Below, piece by piece: positions 5,867 to 12,396 of a stretch of 64,000 bases of DNA; position 1 is the stretch's first letter, and each line of letters starts with the position of its first letter. The translations under genes were made by a program, and so were the position numbers. The notes under the pieces are model-generated. The model ran no database searches. It worked only from the letters and a program-made list of their open reading frames with translations, and had not been told where the DNA came from. Source of the stretch: Chloroflexota bacterium (lineage in GTDB: Bacteria; Chloroflexota; Anaerolineae; Aggregatilineales; Phototrophicaceae); the NCBI GenBank assembly GCA_026707745.1, contig JAPOWG010000098.1, forward strand, positions 4,241-68,240, given 5' to 3'.

Positions 5867-7108
5867 ATGTACAATGGCTGCCACAGCAATCTGGCAAGAG
5901 CAAGTGAAGTCAAATTCAGGGTGGGAAGAGTCGTGAAGCTGTTGGTGGTAGTTTCGTCGCTGGATCTTGCGCAGCCATATAGCGCCACACCCGCTTGGTG
6001 GCAGTTGCTAAAGGGCTTGTACGAACTAGGCGTAGACATCATCGCCACGCCGTACCAGGGCATGCCGGTGGAAAGTTTGTGGTGGCGATGCGAAGACAAT
6101 CCCGCCCGTTGGCAAGGCGAGGCATTTCGTTCTATGCGTGGCTTCGTCCGGCGCTGGAGGCGAGCGAATCCGGGCGAAGCGGTCGGCGAATCCCTGTCGG
6201 ATAGAGCGGTACGTGGCGCAGCGCGCGCATTCATTGCGCCGGTTTGGCGTCGACATCTGGAAGGGATTCTTAAGCGCAATCCCGATATTGATGCCTTGCT
6301 GTTTTTAACGGTACCGCTCAATCACCTGGTGGGCGTACCCCGATATCTCTCGCAGAAGTATGACCTGCCGGTGTTTTACTTTGATGGCGATGTTCCGGCC
6401 AGCTTGCCAAATATGCAGGGATTCGCCTCCGGCTTCCGCATCTACCAGGGGGCGGATGTGAAGGAATATACCGCGTTCATAAGCAACAGCACCGGGGGAG
6501 AGGCGCTCTTGAGGCAACTCGGCGTCGAACGGGTGCATACGGTGTGGTATGGCGCTGATCCCGAAGTCTTCAGCCGGGCGCCAGTTGCAGCGCAAGACAT
6601 TGATGTGCTCTTTTATGGGCACGGTCGCGAATATCGCTCGGAATGGATCGACCAGATGATAAGCGCGCCGTCCCGTCAGCTGACCGACGCACGGTTTGCT
6701 GTGCGCGGGAACAACCTGGGCGATATCGGCGACTGTGAAGCATTGCCATATCTAAGTTTTAGCAAGCTACGGGAATACGTATGCCGCAGCAAGCTCAATC
6801 TTTGCATCACGCGGGACGCGCACGCGAACGTAGCTTGTTCGTCTTCATCGCGCCCGTTTGAGTTGGCTGCGATGAGCGCATGCGTCGTCGCCAACCCCTA
6901 CCTGGGCCTGGAGACCTGGTTCGAGCCGGAGAAAGAGATTATCATTGTCAGTTCCGGCGAAGAGGCGATCGAACGCTATCGATTCTTGCTCGGCCATGAC
7001 AGCGCGCGGGAGTCTATCGGCCGGGCCGCGCGCGAGCGAGTCCTGAAGCAGCACACCTTTCGTCATCGCGCGCGTGAATTGCTTGCGATTGTGCGCCAAT
7101 ACATGTGA
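5867..7108 (+). CDS. CgeB-family / group-1-like glycosyltransferase (uncharacterised)
   Basis: The C-terminal half (LPYLSFSKLREYVCRSKLNLCITR...RPFELAAMSACVVANPY...EIIIVSSGEEAIERYRFLLGHDSARESIGRAARERVLKQHTFRHRA) resembles the CgeB/DUF3880-type glycosyltransferase C-terminus. The true start may be the GTG near 5933 (VKLLVVVSSLD). Confidence 0.55.
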   Translation: MYNGCHSNLARASEVKFRVGRVVKLLVVVSSLDLAQPYSATPAWWQLLKGLYELGVDIIATPYQGMPVESLWWRCEDNPARWQGEAFRSMRGFVRRWRRANPGEAVGESLSDRAVRGAARAFIAPVWRRHLEGILKRNPDIDALLFLTVPLNHLVGVPRYLSQKYDLPVFYFDGDVPASLPNMQGFASGFRIYQGADVKEYTAFISNSTGGEALLRQLGVERVHTVWYGADPEVFSRAPVAAQDIDVLFYGHGREYRSEWIDQMISAPSRQLTDARFAVRGNNLGDIGDCEALPYLSFSKLREYVCRSKLNLCITRDAHANVACSSSSRPFELAAMSACVVANPYLGLETWFEPEKEIIIVSSGEEAIERYRFLLGHDSARESIGRAARERVLKQHTFRHRARELLAIVRQYM

Positions 7109-7145
7109 GTCAGTAGACTTCATCATCCAAATGGGAGAATCAACG

Positions 7146-7988
7146 ATGTCCATAGATATTGGCAAGGCAAGCAGTTTTGTCCATCAGCATGGCACCTTAT
7201 TTGAACGCGCCTTGTTCGACTATCTATTTGCCGGGGGCAGCGGCGAACGAGTACAGGCCATCATCATGTGTTACAAGAATCCCGACGGCGGCTTTGGTCA
7301 CGGCTTCGAGCATGACATCAAAGCGCCGCATTCGCATCCATTAGCGTTGGAGTATCTACTCAGTGTAATGAAACATACGGGCATCGAGCCTGGCGCTATC
7401 CTGGACGGCGTTTCCGACTGGGTCGAGAGCCAGATGGACGAGGCTGGGAATCTGCGCAATCCGCCCGAGACGCGGCACTATCCGCTTGCGCCCTGGTGGC
7501 AGGAAGAGGGCGGCCAAACAATGCCGGATAGTATTGTCGCAAACTTGATACACTTCGATCGCGCCGAAGCTTCCCTGGTAAGGAAGACCGAACGCTGGGT
7601 CGCGGACAGGCATACGCTCGAGAGCATCCGAACTAATGAATGGCTGTTCATGGCGTACCATGCGGTCGATTTCTTTTTCGCAATTGATGAATATCCCGAC
7701 TTGGAGCGGTATCGCGCGGCTACGATCGAAAACGTGCTCGCATGCGCCAAGGCGGCGCCGGCAAGCCAGTACGATTCCTTGTTCGCCTTCGCGCCGACGC
7801 CGGATTCGGCAATCGCGAAAGCGTTGCCCGCCGATTTGCTGGTAAAATACCTTGATGTACTTGAAGGGGCCCAGACGGACGACGGTTGTTGGGTTGATCA
7901 ACATAACTTGCGGCAATGGTGGCCGATGACGACTATCAATGTCTTGCTAGCCTTGGAACGGTATGGTCGGTGGTCAGCGAATCGGTAG
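7146..7988 (+). CDS. hypothetical protein with prenyltransferase / terpene-cyclase-like (alpha-alpha toroid) repeat motifs
   Basis: The ORF track gives 7074..7988. The ATG at 7146 has GGAGA 7 nt upstream. Motifs YKNPDGGFGHGFEHD and QTDDGCWVDQ resemble the xxDGGW/F repeats of this fold. The assignment is tentative. Confidence 0.5.
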   Translation: MSIDIGKASSFVHQHGTLFERALFDYLFAGGSGERVQAIIMCYKNPDGGFGHGFEHDIKAPHSHPLALEYLLSVMKHTGIEPGAILDGVSDWVESQMDEAGNLRNPPETRHYPLAPWWQEEGGQTMPDSIVANLIHFDRAEASLVRKTERWVADRHTLESIRTNEWLFMAYHAVDFFFAIDEYPDLERYRAATIENVLACAKAAPASQYDSLFAFAPTPDSAIAKALPADLLVKYLDVLEGAQTDDGCWVDQHNLRQWWPMTTINVLLALERYGRWSANR

Positions 7989-8033: not shown

Positions 8034-8873
8034 TTGAGAGAGGTCGCTTCTGTGGCTATTGATTTCATCATTGAATACGATTGCGTTCCCAAAGTCCACT
8101 TAACTCCTGAAGGAATTCTGGAGCGTATCAAGGAGAAGGAACGCGCCCAAACCGTCATCCAATGGTTTCGAGAAGCCGGCGACGAGCGCCCTCCATCCGA
8201 AATGGGCTTTGAGTTTAGCCGCAGTTCGTTGGACGAACAATCAAGTAGACAACTGATCGTAGTCCAAGATTTACTGGATCACGCCGCCGCTCTGGATGCG
8301 CATGCCCATCATTGCTCTGCTTGTCCCGCGAATCGAAGCGGCTCTCCTTTTGGCTGCATGGGATTTATCCAGTATCCCATTAGCGCGCAAGCAGAAGCCT
8401 GGTTACTGGATCGACTGCCCGTACCTGACGAGCCGCTGGTTTGGCTGCTGTTGAAACAGGGCATACAACGGCTCGGCTACGACGGCTCATTTGTACGGGC
8501 ATTGCGGGAACTCGACAACCAGAACGAAGGTAGCGAGCGGACTTATTTTCTGTCGCCGGAAGCTCCGCAGAGGCGTTTGGGCGAACTTCGTGTTACGGGC
8601 GATCAGGCGCTTGAGATGATTTTTGGCGTTGGAGATCGCATCATACCAAATCATGCGGGCATACTCTTGTTGTTCTTTGACGCGATTGAACGCGACCTGG
8701 AAGCCTCGGAAATCCAGGGGATTTCGTCATTTGACCAGACTATACGCGAAGGATTCAAGTTTGAAATGGAAGCGGTCTCTACGGGACACGAAGGCATTCG
8801 CGAGATCATCTCGTTTTTTCATGCTTTGTATTTGGCTTGGAAACTGGACGTCTCGCTGTATGTGGATGCTTGA
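8034..8873 (+). CDS. hypothetical cytoplasmic protein with HHCSACP...GC motif
   Basis: 279-aa ORF with coding-like composition and no family I recognise. An alternative GTG start at 8052 is preceded by GAGAGG. It ends 15 nt before the next gene. Confidence 0.55.
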   Translation: MREVASVAIDFIIEYDCVPKVHLTPEGILERIKEKERAQTVIQWFREAGDERPPSEMGFEFSRSSLDEQSSRQLIVVQDLLDHAAALDAHAHHCSACPANRSGSPFGCMGFIQYPISAQAEAWLLDRLPVPDEPLVWLLLKQGIQRLGYDGSFVRALRELDNQNEGSERTYFLSPEAPQRRLGELRVTGDQALEMIFGVGDRIIPNHAGILLLFFDAIERDLEASEIQGISSFDQTIREGFKFEMEAVSTGHEGIREIISFFHALYLAWKLDVSLYVDA

Positions 8874-8888
8874 GCCGCTACCGAAGGC

Positions 8889-9494
8889 GTGATGAAGGAT
8901 TCGAAAACTGATATGCCGCAAAGAACTATTGCCTGGATCGATACCGTTCCTGAAGAGCGAGCCAACGGGGAATTGAAGCGCGCATATCGTCGCAGCGCCG
9001 ATCCGGTTTCCGGAAAGGTCGATCACATCATGCAGATTCACAGCTTGAATCCGGCTTCGTTAGTTGATCATCTGCACCTGTACAAGACCTTGATGTACGG
9101 CGATTCGCCCTTGAGTCGCATCCAGCGTGAAATGATCGGCGTGGTCGTGTCCGCCATCAACCGCTGCGAATACTGACTGCTGCACCATGCGAGGAATCTC
9201 CGTCAGTTGACTGGGGATAGAGATTGGACGGCGCAGATTGAGTCTGACTATCGCGGAGCGGATTTGACCCCGGCTGACCGACAGATGCTGGATTACGCGG
9301 CCAAGTTGACGCTCGCGCCCTGGCAAATGACCGAGAAGGATGTCATCGCATTAAGAGAGCTTGGTTTCAGCGATAGGGCGGTTCTGGATATCGCGCAAGT
9401 TGCCGCATATTACGCTTATGTCAATCGAATAGCCGACGGCTTGGGCGTGTCGCTGGAAGCGTATTGGGCGGATGGAAAAGAAGACTACGATTAA
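8889..9494 (+). CDS. AhpD/carboxymuconolactone-decarboxylase-family 'peroxidase-related enzyme' with an in-frame TGA (9174..9176) at the second Cys of the CxxC motif; candidate selenoprotein (C-E-Y-U)
   Basis: ORF-track fragments 8889..9176 and 9207..9494 are in the same frame, separated only by one TGA. The read-through gives ...VVVSAINRCEY[TGA]LLHHARNLRQL..., which fits the family signature S-x-x-N-x-C-x-Y-C-x-x-x-H. The combined length of about 201 aa is normal for this family. The C-terminal half (ADRQMLDYAAKLTLAPWQMTEKDVIALRELGFSDRAVLDIAQVAAYYAYVNRIADGLGV) is also typical. Confidence 0.7.
9198..9216 (+). promoter_or_regulatory. candidate bacterial SECIS-like hairpin downstream of the TGA at 9174
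   Basis: CUCC-GUC[AGUU]GAC-(U)-GGGG. This is a 7-bp stem (one G.U pair), a bulged U at 9212, and an apical loop AGUU containing GU. The stem starts 21 nt after the TGA. An alternative outer pairing is AAUCUC (9195-9200) with GAGAUU (9220-9225). Confidence 0.4.
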
Positions 9495-9629: not shown

Positions 9630-9720
9630 GATGACCATCCGGCATTTGCTGCAACCATTCCTCAGAATCAGCATAAATCCATTTTTTGCTGTTTGCAAAC
9701 GAAGGAAGTGTATTGAAGTC

Positions 9721-9767
9721 GGTTGAAAATCGTTTTAACCACCGAGGGGCGAGCCGACGGCTCGCCC
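9721..9767. other. two adjacent perfect hairpins in noncoding DNA
   Basis: GGTTGAAA-ATCG-TTTTAACC (9721-9740, 8 bp including one G.U pair) and GGGCGAGCC-GAC-GGCTCGCCC (9747-9767, 9 bp). The linker ACCACCGAGGGGCG also occurs at about 5639-5652, next to the tandem array. Confidence 0.6.
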
Positions 9768-9876
9768 AAAACAGCTTTTCGATAGTTTTGGTATTTTCTT
9801 TCATAGTGCAGTCATTCGCATTACTTTCTTGCAAGTACTGAGGGTACAGAGAAAAACCAACAGAGAAATATATTTT

Positions 9877-9923
9877 GCGGGCGTTTCAGCGGGTCGCGTA
9901 TACACTGACTGTCAAACGCCCGC
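9877..9923. repeat. hairpin-embedded fragment of the GGTCGCG/ACACTGAC repeat family
   Basis: GCGGGCGTTT (9877-9886) pairs with AAACGCCCGC (9914-9923). The loop reads cagcGGGTCGCGTATACACTGACTGTC, matching the family core. Confidence 0.6.
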
Positions 9924-10039
9924 ATACAAAAGGCCAAAGAGCGGGCAGCACGTCGTGCCTCCCCCGACAATGCGGAGCTTTTTTTGCGTGACTTACTTGG
10001 ATTTACTGAGAAAAGCAAGGCTGTACATTTCATCTTCAG

Positions 10040-10250
10040 TGATACAGATTACCCATTTCGGTTGAAATAAAGAACAACAGCCAGCCGACAGCCGGTAGGG
10101 GTGATCTATCAGATCGCCCGACGATAAGAAACTGAATGTGTATCGGGTGACTGGCGGTCCGTGTTAACAGTCGGTGTTTACGCGACCTAAGCGACCCACG
10201 CGACCAACTGTTGCGCGTAGACACCGCAGGCCAGTCGTCCGACCGGATCA
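10040..10250 (-). repeat. long copy of the GGTCGCG/ACACTGAC intergenic repeat family, inverted relative to the copy at about 50170-50325
   Basis: The reverse complement reads ...gtgtctacgcgcaacagttggtcgcgtgggtcgcttaggtcgcgtaaacaccgactg...cagtttcttatcgtcgggcgatct...cccctaccggctgtcggctggctgttgttctttatttcaacc. This aligns by eye with 50170-50325 (gtgtctatgcgcagcggttagtcgcc...cagtttttactcgtcgggcgatct...cccctgccggctgtcaggcggttgtttttctttatttcaacc). Confidence 0.75.
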
Positions 10251-10396
10251 CTGGTATTTTGGGTTAAGGATCTCATGTCGAAGTCTGGCAAAAGTAATTC
10301 AACCGAAAAGGATACACTGACAACGACGGTTGATATTTGTCCAAGGGCAGGGGTAGGGGTTACAATGGCTGCCAAAAGGAATTGGCCCCATACAAT

Positions 10397-11842
10397 ATGA
10401 CCCCAATACCTCGAGGTTACAGCGGATTTCTGCTGGTAGTGAAGAAGGACTGCAATACCTGCCAGTTGATTGAGACCGCCATCGCTGAATTACAGCGATC
10501 GGGCGCGCTGCGTGTGACTTCGCAGGACGATCCGCAGTTCCCGGCGGGAGTCCGTGATGTGAAAGACGATCGCGAACTTGAACAGTCCTATCACTTGAAC
10601 ATCGAAACGGTTCCCACGCTGATCGCATGCCAAGATGGCGTGGAACAGGAACGCCTTGTCGGCTGGTCGCGGGAGGACTGGCGGCGCCTGACTGGTATTC
10701 CCTCGCTGGGCACGGATCTTCCCCAATTCAGTCCAGGTTGTGGTTCCAGGACAGTTGAGCCTGGCATGCTGGATAAGCTGGCTTACAGGTTTGGCGACAC
10801 GGTTCTGCAAGCGCGTCGCATTGATGTAGCCGAGATGGAAGACGTCCATGAACTCATGTACGAGCGCGGCTGGTCCGACGGCTTGCCCCTGGTGCCGCCA
10901 AGCGAAGATCGCGTAATGCGTATGTTGGGCGGGACAAGCCGCGCGCCGGACGAGATAGTGGGAGTGATCCCGCCGGATCAGGCGCTGTGCACTGTGGAGA
11001 AAGTGACCATCAACGCGGTGATGGCGGGCTGCAAACCCGAATATCTTCCGGTTGTCTTGGCTGCGGTGGAAGCAGCTTGCCTCGACGAATTCTGTATGCA
11101 CGGGCTGCTGGCGACGACCTATTTCTCGGGGCCCATCGTCATCGTCAACGGACCGATCATCAACGAGATCGGGCTGAACTGGAGCACTAATGCGCTGGGG
11201 CAGGGAAACCGAGCCAATTCAACTATTGGGCGCGCCTTGCAACTGGTGATCCGAAATGTCGGCGGAGGCAAACCCGGGGGCGTCGATCGCGCGGCGCTAG
11301 GGCAGCCGGGTAAAGTCGGTTTCTGCTTTCCTGAGCGCGAACACGACTCATATTGGGAATCGCTGGCGGTCGAAAGGGGCTTTGCCCCGGAACAATCGAC
11401 GGTGACATTGTTCGCCGGCGACGGCGTCCACGGCATCGCCGATCAAAAGTCTCGCGAGCCAAAGTCCCTGACGCGCAGCCTTGCCATGACCCTGCGAACG
11501 GTCAAGCACGGCAAACTCTTTGGGGACGCCAGCGCGATGCTGATTGTCACGCCGGAGCATATGCGCGTCTTTCGAGAAGCCGGTTGGAGCAAAGCGCGTT
11601 TCCGCGAAGAGCTTGACAAATGTCTGAACTTCGACGGCTCGGAATTGATTCGCGGCGCCTCCCATATCGCCGAGGGCATGCCGGAGTCGTCTGCGGGACG
11701 CCGACTGACAAAGTTCGGGCCCGATGGTCTGTTAATTGTCCACACCGGCGGTTCCGCCGGCATGTGGTCCGCGGTGATTGGCGGCTGGGCCGCAACCGGA
11801 GCAAAAGGCAGTACACCGGTAACAGTGGCGATCAAGTCTTGA
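10397..11842 (+). CDS. thioredoxin-fold (C-N-T-C) domain fused to a ~380-aa uncharacterised domain
   Basis: The N-terminus FLLVVKKDCNTCQL...NIETVPTLIACQDG...VGW has a Trx-like CxxC plus a cis-Pro TVPT motif. The remainder (ERGWSDGLPLVPPSEDRV...INAVMAGCKPEYLPVVLAAVEA...) I cannot assign. The track ORF starts at TTG 10337; ATG 10397 is preferred but uncertain. Confidence 0.7.
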   Translation: MTPIPRGYSGFLLVVKKDCNTCQLIETAIAELQRSGALRVTSQDDPQFPAGVRDVKDDRELEQSYHLNIETVPTLIACQDGVEQERLVGWSREDWRRLTGIPSLGTDLPQFSPGCGSRTVEPGMLDKLAYRFGDTVLQARRIDVAEMEDVHELMYERGWSDGLPLVPPSEDRVMRMLGGTSRAPDEIVGVIPPDQALCTVEKVTINAVMAGCKPEYLPVVLAAVEAACLDEFCMHGLLATTYFSGPIVIVNGPIINEIGLNWSTNALGQGNRANSTIGRALQLVIRNVGGGKPGGVDRAALGQPGKVGFCFPEREHDSYWESLAVERGFAPEQSTVTLFAGDGVHGIADQKSREPKSLTRSLAMTLRTVKHGKLFGDASAMLIVTPEHMRVFREAGWSKARFREELDKCLNFDGSELIRGASHIAEGMPESSAGRRLTKFGPDGLLIVHTGGSAGMWSAVIGGWAATGAKGSTPVTVAIKS

Positions 11843-11870: not shown

Positions 11871-12386
11871 ATGTCCACCATTCTGGACCCAACAGGAGAA
11901 TTGCAGCCGGCGCGACGAGAGCGATTGCCGCGCCTGCCGGAGTTGGCAGGCAAAACTGTGGGGCTGCTGGATATCTCGAAGCCGCGGGGTGATGTCTTTC
12001 TCGATCGCCTGGAGCAACATCTAGGCGCGGGCGGCATCGCGGTTCGGCGTTACCAAAAGCCGACGTTCACGCGAATAGCGCCCGCCGATCTCAAATTTCA
12101 AATCGCGCGCGACTGCGACGTGGTGATCGAAGCGCTCGCTGATTGAGGATCCTGTACGTCGTGCAGTGTGCATGACATCAGTGATCTGGAATCGCGCGGG
12201 GTACCGGGCGTGTTCATCGCCTCGACCGAGTTTGTTGAAGCGGCGGAAGCGCAAGGGGTCGCCCTCGGCTTCGCGCCGGCGGCGCACTTTGTAGCGCATC
12301 CGATCCAAGATCGAAACGACGACGAGATTCGACTTCTGGCGGATACGGCCTATGAGGAGATTCTAGCGCAGATCGTAGAGAATTGA
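11871..12386 (+). CDS. 'UGSC'-motif protein with an in-frame TGA (12144..12146); candidate selenoprotein (U-G-S-C-T-S-C)
   Basis: Track fragments 11871..12146 and 12168..12386 share one frame across a single TGA. The read-through gives ...DCDVVIEALAD[TGA]GSCTSCSVHDISDLESRGVPGVFIASTEF..., about 171 aa. The [U/C]GSC motif is the one that, as I recall, names the RefSeq product class 'UGSC family (seleno)protein'. Confidence 0.72.
12158..12176 (+). promoter_or_regulatory. candidate bacterial SECIS hairpin downstream of the TGA at 12144
   Basis: GUCGUGC(A)-GUG-(U)GCAUGAC forms a 7-8 bp stem (one G.U pair) with an apical loop containing GU. Exactly 11 nt (12147-12157) separate the TGA from the stem base, which is the spacing known for the E. 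coli fdhF minimal SECIS. Confidence 0.5.
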
Positions 12387-12396
12387 GGGATGTGAA

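Follow-up and report, generated by a model that had tools for sequence, protein, structure and literature searches.

An in-frame TGA divides an AhpD-like gene of a Chloroflexota bacterium into two open reading frames, and the question raised by the locus is whether this codon ends a protein or is read as selenocysteine (Sec) within a longer one. The gene lies on the forward strand of a 64-kb stretch of contig JAPOWG010000098.1, referred to below as the window. Our answer is that 8892-9494 is in all likelihood one intact selenoprotein gene, encoding an AhpD-like thiol/selenol oxidoreductase in which the TGA would specify Sec at the active site. We take it to be a genuine selenoprotein gene because the UGA falls in the column of the second cysteine of the family motif, is kept in 87 loci, separates two halves under equal purifying selection and is followed by a conserved hairpin. 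The locus joins a family on record since 2005, and the family, its motif and the recoding mechanism are already established; the sole mildly unusual aspect of the locus is the displaced position of the hairpin.

Reading frame, family and active site

Read directly in the window, positions 9159-9188 (+) are AAC CGC TGC GAA TAC TGA CTG CTG CAC CAT, which bears out the string N-R-C-E-Y-*-L-L-H-H given by an earlier annotation made from the letters alone (the sequence-only reading). The two 95-aa ORFs, 8889..9176 and 9207..9494, have a common frame, and the translation of 8889-9494 comprises 201 codons with that single internal stop (...INRCEY*LLHHARNLRQLTGD...). The frame has no further stops or frameshifts beyond the TGA. 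The two fragments had been proposed to make up one protein of about 201 aa, and this is indeed what their shared frame, the 201 codons and the single TIGR01926 domain spanning them indicate. The positions of the gene and of the other features discussed below are collected in Table 1. The start codon preferred there, ATG 8892, is common to the related loci L004-L007; on the source scaffold, the public annotation starts at the ATG at 8913. On that scaffold (ENA, ROBB21-1_SAMN13943206_METAG-scaffold_131, 90.9 kb) the public calls split the AhpD-like locus into ORFs of 87 aa and 76 aa, the mis-annotation as two fragments that the sequence-only reading had anticipated, and separate fragment entries of the gene are present in public protein collections.

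A hypothetical gene upstream (8034-8873) ends in a TGA (8871-8873) that lies in the frame of the AhpD-like gene, 15 nt 5' of the GTG at 8889; we have treated it as an ordinary stop. The pair formed by this gene and 8889-9494 is kept in L004-L007 at about equal spacing.

Table 1. Positions in the window of the AhpD-like gene, the UGSC-family gene and their predicted elements.
Feature	Position	Strand	Basis or remark
AhpD-like (TIGR01926) predicted selenoprotein, full CDS, ~200 aa including one Sec	8892..9494	+	TIGR01926, Pfam CMD, PDB relatives
Alternative starts of the AhpD-like CDS	GTG 8889, ATG 8913	+	stop TAA 9492-9494
In-frame TGA, predicted selenocysteine U96 (numbered from 8889)	9174..9176	+	column of the second Cys in CxxC
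Active-site segment C93-E-Y95-U96-L-L-H99-H100	9165..9188	+	CxxU; conserved His four residues past Sec
E81 codon of the AhpD-like gene	9129-9131	+	completes the AhpD proton-relay set
Candidate bacterial SECIS, AUCUCCGUC[AGUU]GAC(U)GGGGAU	9196..9218	+	fold, bSECIS model, clade conservation
Core stem of the candidate SECIS	9198-9204 with 9209-9216	+	loop 9205-9208; bulged U 9212
UGSC-family predicted selenoprotein gene	11871-12387	+	NF041046, PF24696; TGA 12144-12146
UGSC SECIS-type hairpin, GUCGUGCA[GUG]UGCAUGAC	12158-12176	+	8 bp; GU-containing loop 19 nt past UGA

Profile searches were carried out with the fused protein, its internal stop replaced by Cys. The best-supported assignment is the NCBIfam family TIGR01926, 'peroxidase-related enzyme' (146.9 bits for a cut-off of 81.8; residues 16-187 on profile positions 2-173 of 178), accompanied by matches to Pfam CMD (PF02627; 2.7e-12, 46.9 bits, cut-off 23) and to the core domain TIGR00778 (39.9 bits versus a cut-off of 27.8). 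The sequence-only reading had named the same family, an AhpD/CMD 'peroxidase-related enzyme', and these scores agree with it.

Other candidate families were considered and set aside. The score against canonical AhpD of the Mycobacterium tuberculosis type (TIGR00777) is 22.3 bits, compared with a cut-off of 191.95, and the window protein is hence not an orthologue of that enzyme. AhpD_rel_CFYUT (NF041238) scores 61.3 bits versus a cut-off of 175; the window protein has 201 aa and a CEYUL motif, not CFYUT in about 357 aa. The sestrin family (PF04636, PA26) reaches 44.7 bits, above the Pfam cut-off of 29.4, but only over profile positions 19-142 of 445. The simplest cause of this partial match is presumably shared AhpD-type ancestry.

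The family profile also retrieves PDB relatives: 3c1l, 2pfx and 6k40 with E values of 1e-42 to 1e-44, the range being 1e-35 to 1e-44 when 2oyo and 2prr are included. Full-length homologues in the PDB, with E ~1e-44, suffice to establish the fold. The motif N-x-C-x-Y-C-L-x-x-H of the PDB chains (N-H-C-Y-Y-C-L or N-K-C-F-Y-C-L in individual entries) aligns residue for residue with N-R-C-E-Y-U-L-L-H-H in the window protein. Moreover, in the alignment with Cys homologues (A1), N91, C93, Y95 and H100, together with E81, are invariant, and the TGA column is occupied by Cys. Two further points of the sequence-only reading are thereby corroborated, namely the family signature N-x-C-x-Y-C-x-x-x-H and the placement of the TGA on the second Cys of CxxC, as seen in the Cys homologues, 3c1l and 2pfx. 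The solved TIGR01926-type proteins (Mlr4105, PDB entry 3c1l; 2pfx; 2oyo; 2prr; and AhpD, PDB entry 6k40) resemble the window protein over its full length and all have Cys at the second position, where the window protein would have Sec; for most of these structures the depositors' label is 'uncharacterized' or 'putative'.

The spacing of E81, C93, Y95, U96 and H100 is identical to that of the proton relays of M. tuberculosis AhpD (MtAhpD; Glu118, Cys130, His132, Cys133 and His137) and of PA0269 (Glu36, Cys48, Tyr50, Cys51 and His55) (PMC3141380). MtAhpD (Rv2429), the AhpC-reducing alkylhydroperoxidase, thus shares with the window protein the CMD/AhpD core fold family and the relay spacing E...C-x-[H/Y]-C-x-x-x-H; it differs in having His between its redox residues and Cys as the second of them, whereas the window protein has Tyr and, as predicted, Sec. 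This Sec would sit where MtAhpD has Cys133, which makes the mixed disulfide with Cys61 of AhpC.

From these comparisons the following mechanism can be proposed. The hairpin 3' of the UGA would recruit SelB and Sec-tRNA(Sec) to the ribosome paused at this codon, Sec would be inserted and translation would run on to the TAA, giving a product of some 200 aa whose active site comprises C93-x-x-U96...H100 plus E81. In MtAhpD the second Cys, Cys133, is exposed and forms a disulfide with Cys61 of AhpC, while Cys130 is partly buried (PMC6626918); on account of this disulfide we would assign the nucleophilic attack to Sec96 and the subsequent resolution of the selenenylsulfide to Cys93. The assignment of the two roles is made by analogy only, and in the AhpD of Burkholderia thailandensis the first Cys matters more. 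By the same analogy, the protein would contribute to oxidative-stress defence as a reductase or peroxidase that is faster and of lower pKa. Among the genes annotated around the AhpD-like gene we saw no partner of the AhpC or lipoamide-system type.

AhpD-like selenoproteins with a CxxU motif, to which the sequence-only reading had referred, are documented. The Sargasso Sea study of 2005, the earliest description of the family, assigned 27 sequences to COG2128 (PMC1088965), the GOS selenoproteome of 2008 counted 299 sequences of 'AhpD-like 1', the fourth family by sequence count (PMC2398784), and a 2026 review lists both 'AhpD-like protein, TIGR01926, CxxU' and 'UGSC-containing protein, NF041046' (PMC13188914). 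The window protein shares with this COG2128/TIGR01926 family the same HMM, the same length and CxxU with Sec at the second Cys, as well as the pattern of Sec and Cys homologues and a coding-region SECIS hairpin directly 3' of the UGA. The differences concern the host, a Chloroflexota MAG (scaffold ROBB21-1_SAMN13943206_METAG) rather than marine plankton, and the hairpin, whose loop is mostly 16-18 nt past the UGA in the family and 28 nt past it in the window, where H-A-R-N-L replaces H-G-x-G-L. AhpD_rel_CFYUT, called 'hypothetical protein 1' in the Sargasso Sea study, likewise combines CxxU with a distantly related AhpD-type domain, but is a separate family with a 357-position profile.

The candidate SECIS hairpin and its position in the family

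The core hairpin CUCCGUC[AGUU]GAC(U)GGGG (9198-9216) begins 21 nt past the TGA; in its extended form it spans 9196-9218, and it belongs to the MFE fold. The model for bacterial SECIS elements (bSECIS; PMC13188914) specifies a loop of 3-9 nt with a G in its first two positions, a stem of 4-16 bp, a distance from UGA to loop of 16-37 nt and an MFE of -7.5 kcal/mol or lower. With its 4-nt loop AGUU, a G at loop position 2, a stem of 7-9 bp, a spacing of 28 nt and -9.0 kcal/mol, the hairpin agrees with the model on all four of its criteria. The sequence-only reading had pointed to this hairpin with its bulged U, 21 nt past the TGA; it is present, fits the bSECIS model and is kept in the clade of the window sequence. 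The folding check proposed at the same time gave a mixed result: the hairpin appears in the MFE fold at -9.0 kcal/mol, but its stability is no better than that of shuffled or recoded sequences. Compared with dinucleotide shuffles of the single sequence, it is not above chance (z = -0.6), and its MFE is no better than that of synonymous recodings (p=0.39). By itself the hairpin is weak evidence, because 33% of the synonymous recodings contain a compliant hairpin somewhere, and we did not count its stability alone as evidence.

We may therefore ask which local structure would serve as the SECIS. One possibility, which we consider unlikely, is that the gene encodes a selenoprotein but uses a structure other than the AGUU hairpin, either the hairpin at 9200-9231 (-9.2 kcal/mol, GGGA loop, 37 nt past the UGA) or a weak proximal hairpin. 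The former is a compliant alternative of equal energy that single-sequence statistics cannot tell from the AGUU hairpin, and most family members rely on a proximal one whose loop lies 16-18 nt past the UGA. Comparison within the clade argues the other way. The best compliant hairpin lies at exactly 28 nt in all six clade relatives, including the divergent L001 and L002, and only the AGUU hairpin recurs in this manner; RNAalifold recovers it from the seven clade sequences; and just 7% of the synonymous recodings place a compliant hairpin at its position. The proximal window of the clade, on the other hand, is nearly unstructured (-2.9 kcal/mol, compared with -7.75 kcal/mol in the other members).

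Several further features bear on the AGUU hairpin itself. In the clade, 87% of its cells are paired, compared with 31-54% in controls with the partner slid. Variation is confined to the bulge (U/C), one change from U-G to U-A and the outermost pairs. The clade shows minimal covariation, limited to a single compensatory pair. L001 has a perfect CUUCGUC[AGUU]GACGAAG despite a GD-to-KL change in the peptide. Finally, synonymous variability among the seven clade sequences is lowest just 3' of the TGA (0.50-0.55, compared with 0.82 overall). We regard the AGUU hairpin (9196-9218) as the probable functional SECIS of the gene.

Its position sets the clade apart. The common hairpin of the family, ACGGAG-loop-CUCCGU, covers the codons for H-G-x-G-L-R and has its loop 16-18 nt past the UGA in 55 of 88 sequences. 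This proximal helix is 80% paired, versus at most 55% in slid controls, and shows compensatory changes at three pairs (84 distinct sequences). In the window's clade the codons of the usual 5' arm specify H-A-R-N-L-R in place of H-G-x-G-L-R, and the AGUU hairpin lies about 10 nt further downstream than the hairpin of most family members. The folding energies of the two regions are reciprocal: in the clade the MFE is -2.9 kcal/mol for the proximal region and -9.1 kcal/mol for the distal one, compared with -7.75 and -3.3 kcal/mol, respectively, in the 78 other family members. The segment CUCCGU, the 3' arm of the common form, serves as the 5' arm in the window's clade. This suggests a scenario in which the SECIS moved within one selenoprotein family: as H-G-x-G changed to H-A-R-N, CUCCGU would have re-paired forward with GAC(U)GGGG, bringing the loop to 28 nt. 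We judge such a move to be about as likely as not.

A Cys form of the gene, L089 (GCA_975271335.1, contig CDHVFE010000116.1, 541-585), has TGT at the Sec column within the motif CRYCIVQHGEGL. It contains a SECIS-like hairpin, CGUCCAGCACGGCGAA[GGUC]UUCGCCGCUGGACG, of -22.4 kcal/mol, with its loop 18 nt past the TGT codon, which may be a 'fossil' SECIS left after a recent Sec-to-Cys conversion. A comparison of hairpin energies between Sec and Cys forms of the gene told little, as it included only five Cys forms, of which four have chance hairpins between -5.8 and -8.4 kcal/mol and one has a very strong, SECIS-like hairpin.

The TGA codon in related loci

We assembled 92 related loci from a scan of species-representative genomes, from contigs with database fragments and from a profile-based metagenome scan. 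The latter contributed 80 loci once alignment A1 was used as the query; with a single protein as the query, the metagenome scan returned nothing. TGA occupies the Sec column in 87 of the 92 loci, and TGC or TGT in the remaining five. Four loci from Chloroflexota/Anaerolineae MAGs, at 89-91% identity, all have TGA in the same codon and keep the gene order on both sides of the AhpD-like gene, and two independent contigs at 66-75% identity, with database fragments of distant relatives, have it too. Compared with L004-L007, dN/dS is 0.12-0.20 for the part downstream of the TGA and 0.14-0.16 for the part upstream. The downstream half is thus under selection equal to that on the upstream half, which argues that the second half is translated and contradicts the objection foreseen in the sequence-only reading, that the second fragment might not be conserved. 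In addition, the catalytic His100 is encoded 3' of the TGA and is invariant.

Could the TGA be read through by means other than Sec? Genetic code 4 or 25 would give Trp or Gly, and near-cognate read-through would give Trp or Cys; we consider this very improbable. Database homologues (P0001-P0020) do display W at the Sec column, but this W results from translating TGA under code 4, and the gene call concerned also overruns the true TGA stop. In the window, TGA is the commonest ordinary stop, ending 23 of 48 long ORFs, which excludes a genetic code with TGA as a sense codon. The column holds the catalytic Cys in homologues, as expected of a Sec/Cys pair, and the adjoining UGSC gene, described below, shares the property of an in-frame TGA.

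The database entries deserve a separate comment. Many of those in question (P0001-P0020, and L003 at 175-750) were called with code 4 on short AT-rich marine contigs; in these calls the Sec codon becomes Trp (C-H-Y-W), and the overrun of the true TGA produces a false C-terminal extension. One metagenome homologue, L063, reads AAA TGT GAG TAA TGA at 1235-1240, with TAA as the conserved Tyr codon, and is probably a pseudogene or a sequencing error.

It is just as improbable that the locus encodes two separate small proteins, an N-terminal one of 87-95 aa ending at the TGA and a C-terminal one starting at TTG 9207. This TTG does open a 95-aa ORF, and both fragments stand as database entries; other database matches are N-terminal fragments ending in ...C-E-Y or C-terminal fragments starting one to several codons past the TGA. 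The relatives, however, have no conserved start at this place, and the spread in the latter starts reflects the choices of the gene callers. Moreover, the stretch of ten codons from the TGA to 9207 (LLHHARNLRQ) is conserved in the family and includes the codon for the catalytic His100, and the single TIGR01926 domain and the PDB chains need both halves. Finally, an ordinary Cys AhpD-like gene might have been broken by a nonsense mutation, making it a pseudogene, or its TGC or TGT might have been miscalled in sequencing or assembly. This would suit the two fragments given by public gene callers, but with the same TGA in 87 independently assembled loci from many samples, a frame otherwise intact and downstream dN/dS values like those upstream, we regard this very improbable explanation as effectively refuted.

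A second selenoprotein gene and its surroundings

A second TGA-interrupted gene starts 2.4 kb downstream of the AhpD-like gene. Its ORF (11871..12146) ends with ...EALAD-TGA-GSCTSC, which gives the motif U-G-S-C-T-S-C when the TGA is read as Sec. Joined to 12387, the gene matches NF041046, 'UGSC family (seleno)protein', with 147.9 bits (cut-off 125), and also PF24696. Its TGA at 12144 is kept in L005-L007. The strong hairpin that follows (Table 1) has the form of a textbook canonical bSECIS. The N-terminal fragment of this protein has been deposited as NCBI MCY4072945.1, 'hypothetical protein [Chloroflexi bacterium]'. A codon-usage scan for more TGA-interrupted genes in the window was noisy, antisense frames scoring as high as real genes; only the UGSC gene was recovered convincingly, and the AhpD-like gene itself was not flagged.

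The Sec machinery was sought in the same region. No selA, selB or selD was found among the 51 ORFs of the window with NCBIfam, nor in the approximately 10 kb past its 3' end; ARAGORN found no tRNA, tRNA-Sec included, in the 64-kb window, tRNA-Sec was likewise not found in those 10 kb, and Rfam at gathering thresholds gave no match over the whole window. The probable Sec trait of this genome is deduced solely from its two selenoprotein genes.

The neighbouring genes at 7074-7988, 8034-8873 and 10337-11842 gave nothing significant in Pfam, NCBIfam or PDB and therefore offer no functional context. The last of these (+) encodes a 501-aa protein and immediately precedes the UGSC gene. At its N-terminus the protein has a C-N-T-C motif and a sub-threshold glutaredoxin/thioredoxin-like match (E 0.01). 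Its gene adjoins the UGSC gene in L005-L007, where it is also close to the AhpD-like gene, as it is in the more distant L002; the protein may be a redox partner. Between the AhpD-like gene and this gene, an intergenic segment of about 615 bp (~9705-10322) is missing from the otherwise collinear L005 and L007. Imperfect inverted repeats of 21 nt mark its edges (9707-9727 and 10298-10318, with 76% complementarity), and palindromes occur inside it, for example GGGCGAGCCG/CGGCTCGCCC (9747-9767). Its appearance is that of a small non-autonomous, MITE-like insertion.

What, then, does the locus contribute? If the SECIS did shift, the window's clade would be a concrete case of SECIS turnover through arm re-use under coding constraint, and the Cys form L089 with its 'fossil' hairpin would represent the other end of one process. 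The displaced SECIS would in this sense be a modest addition to knowledge of drift in coding-region RNA signals. The main value of the finding lies in annotation. The AhpD-like gene stands publicly as two meaningless fragments and the UGSC gene as a truncated 'hypothetical protein'; joining each split pair yields two predicted redox selenoproteins, in a Chloroflexota lineage that very probably decodes UGA as selenocysteine.
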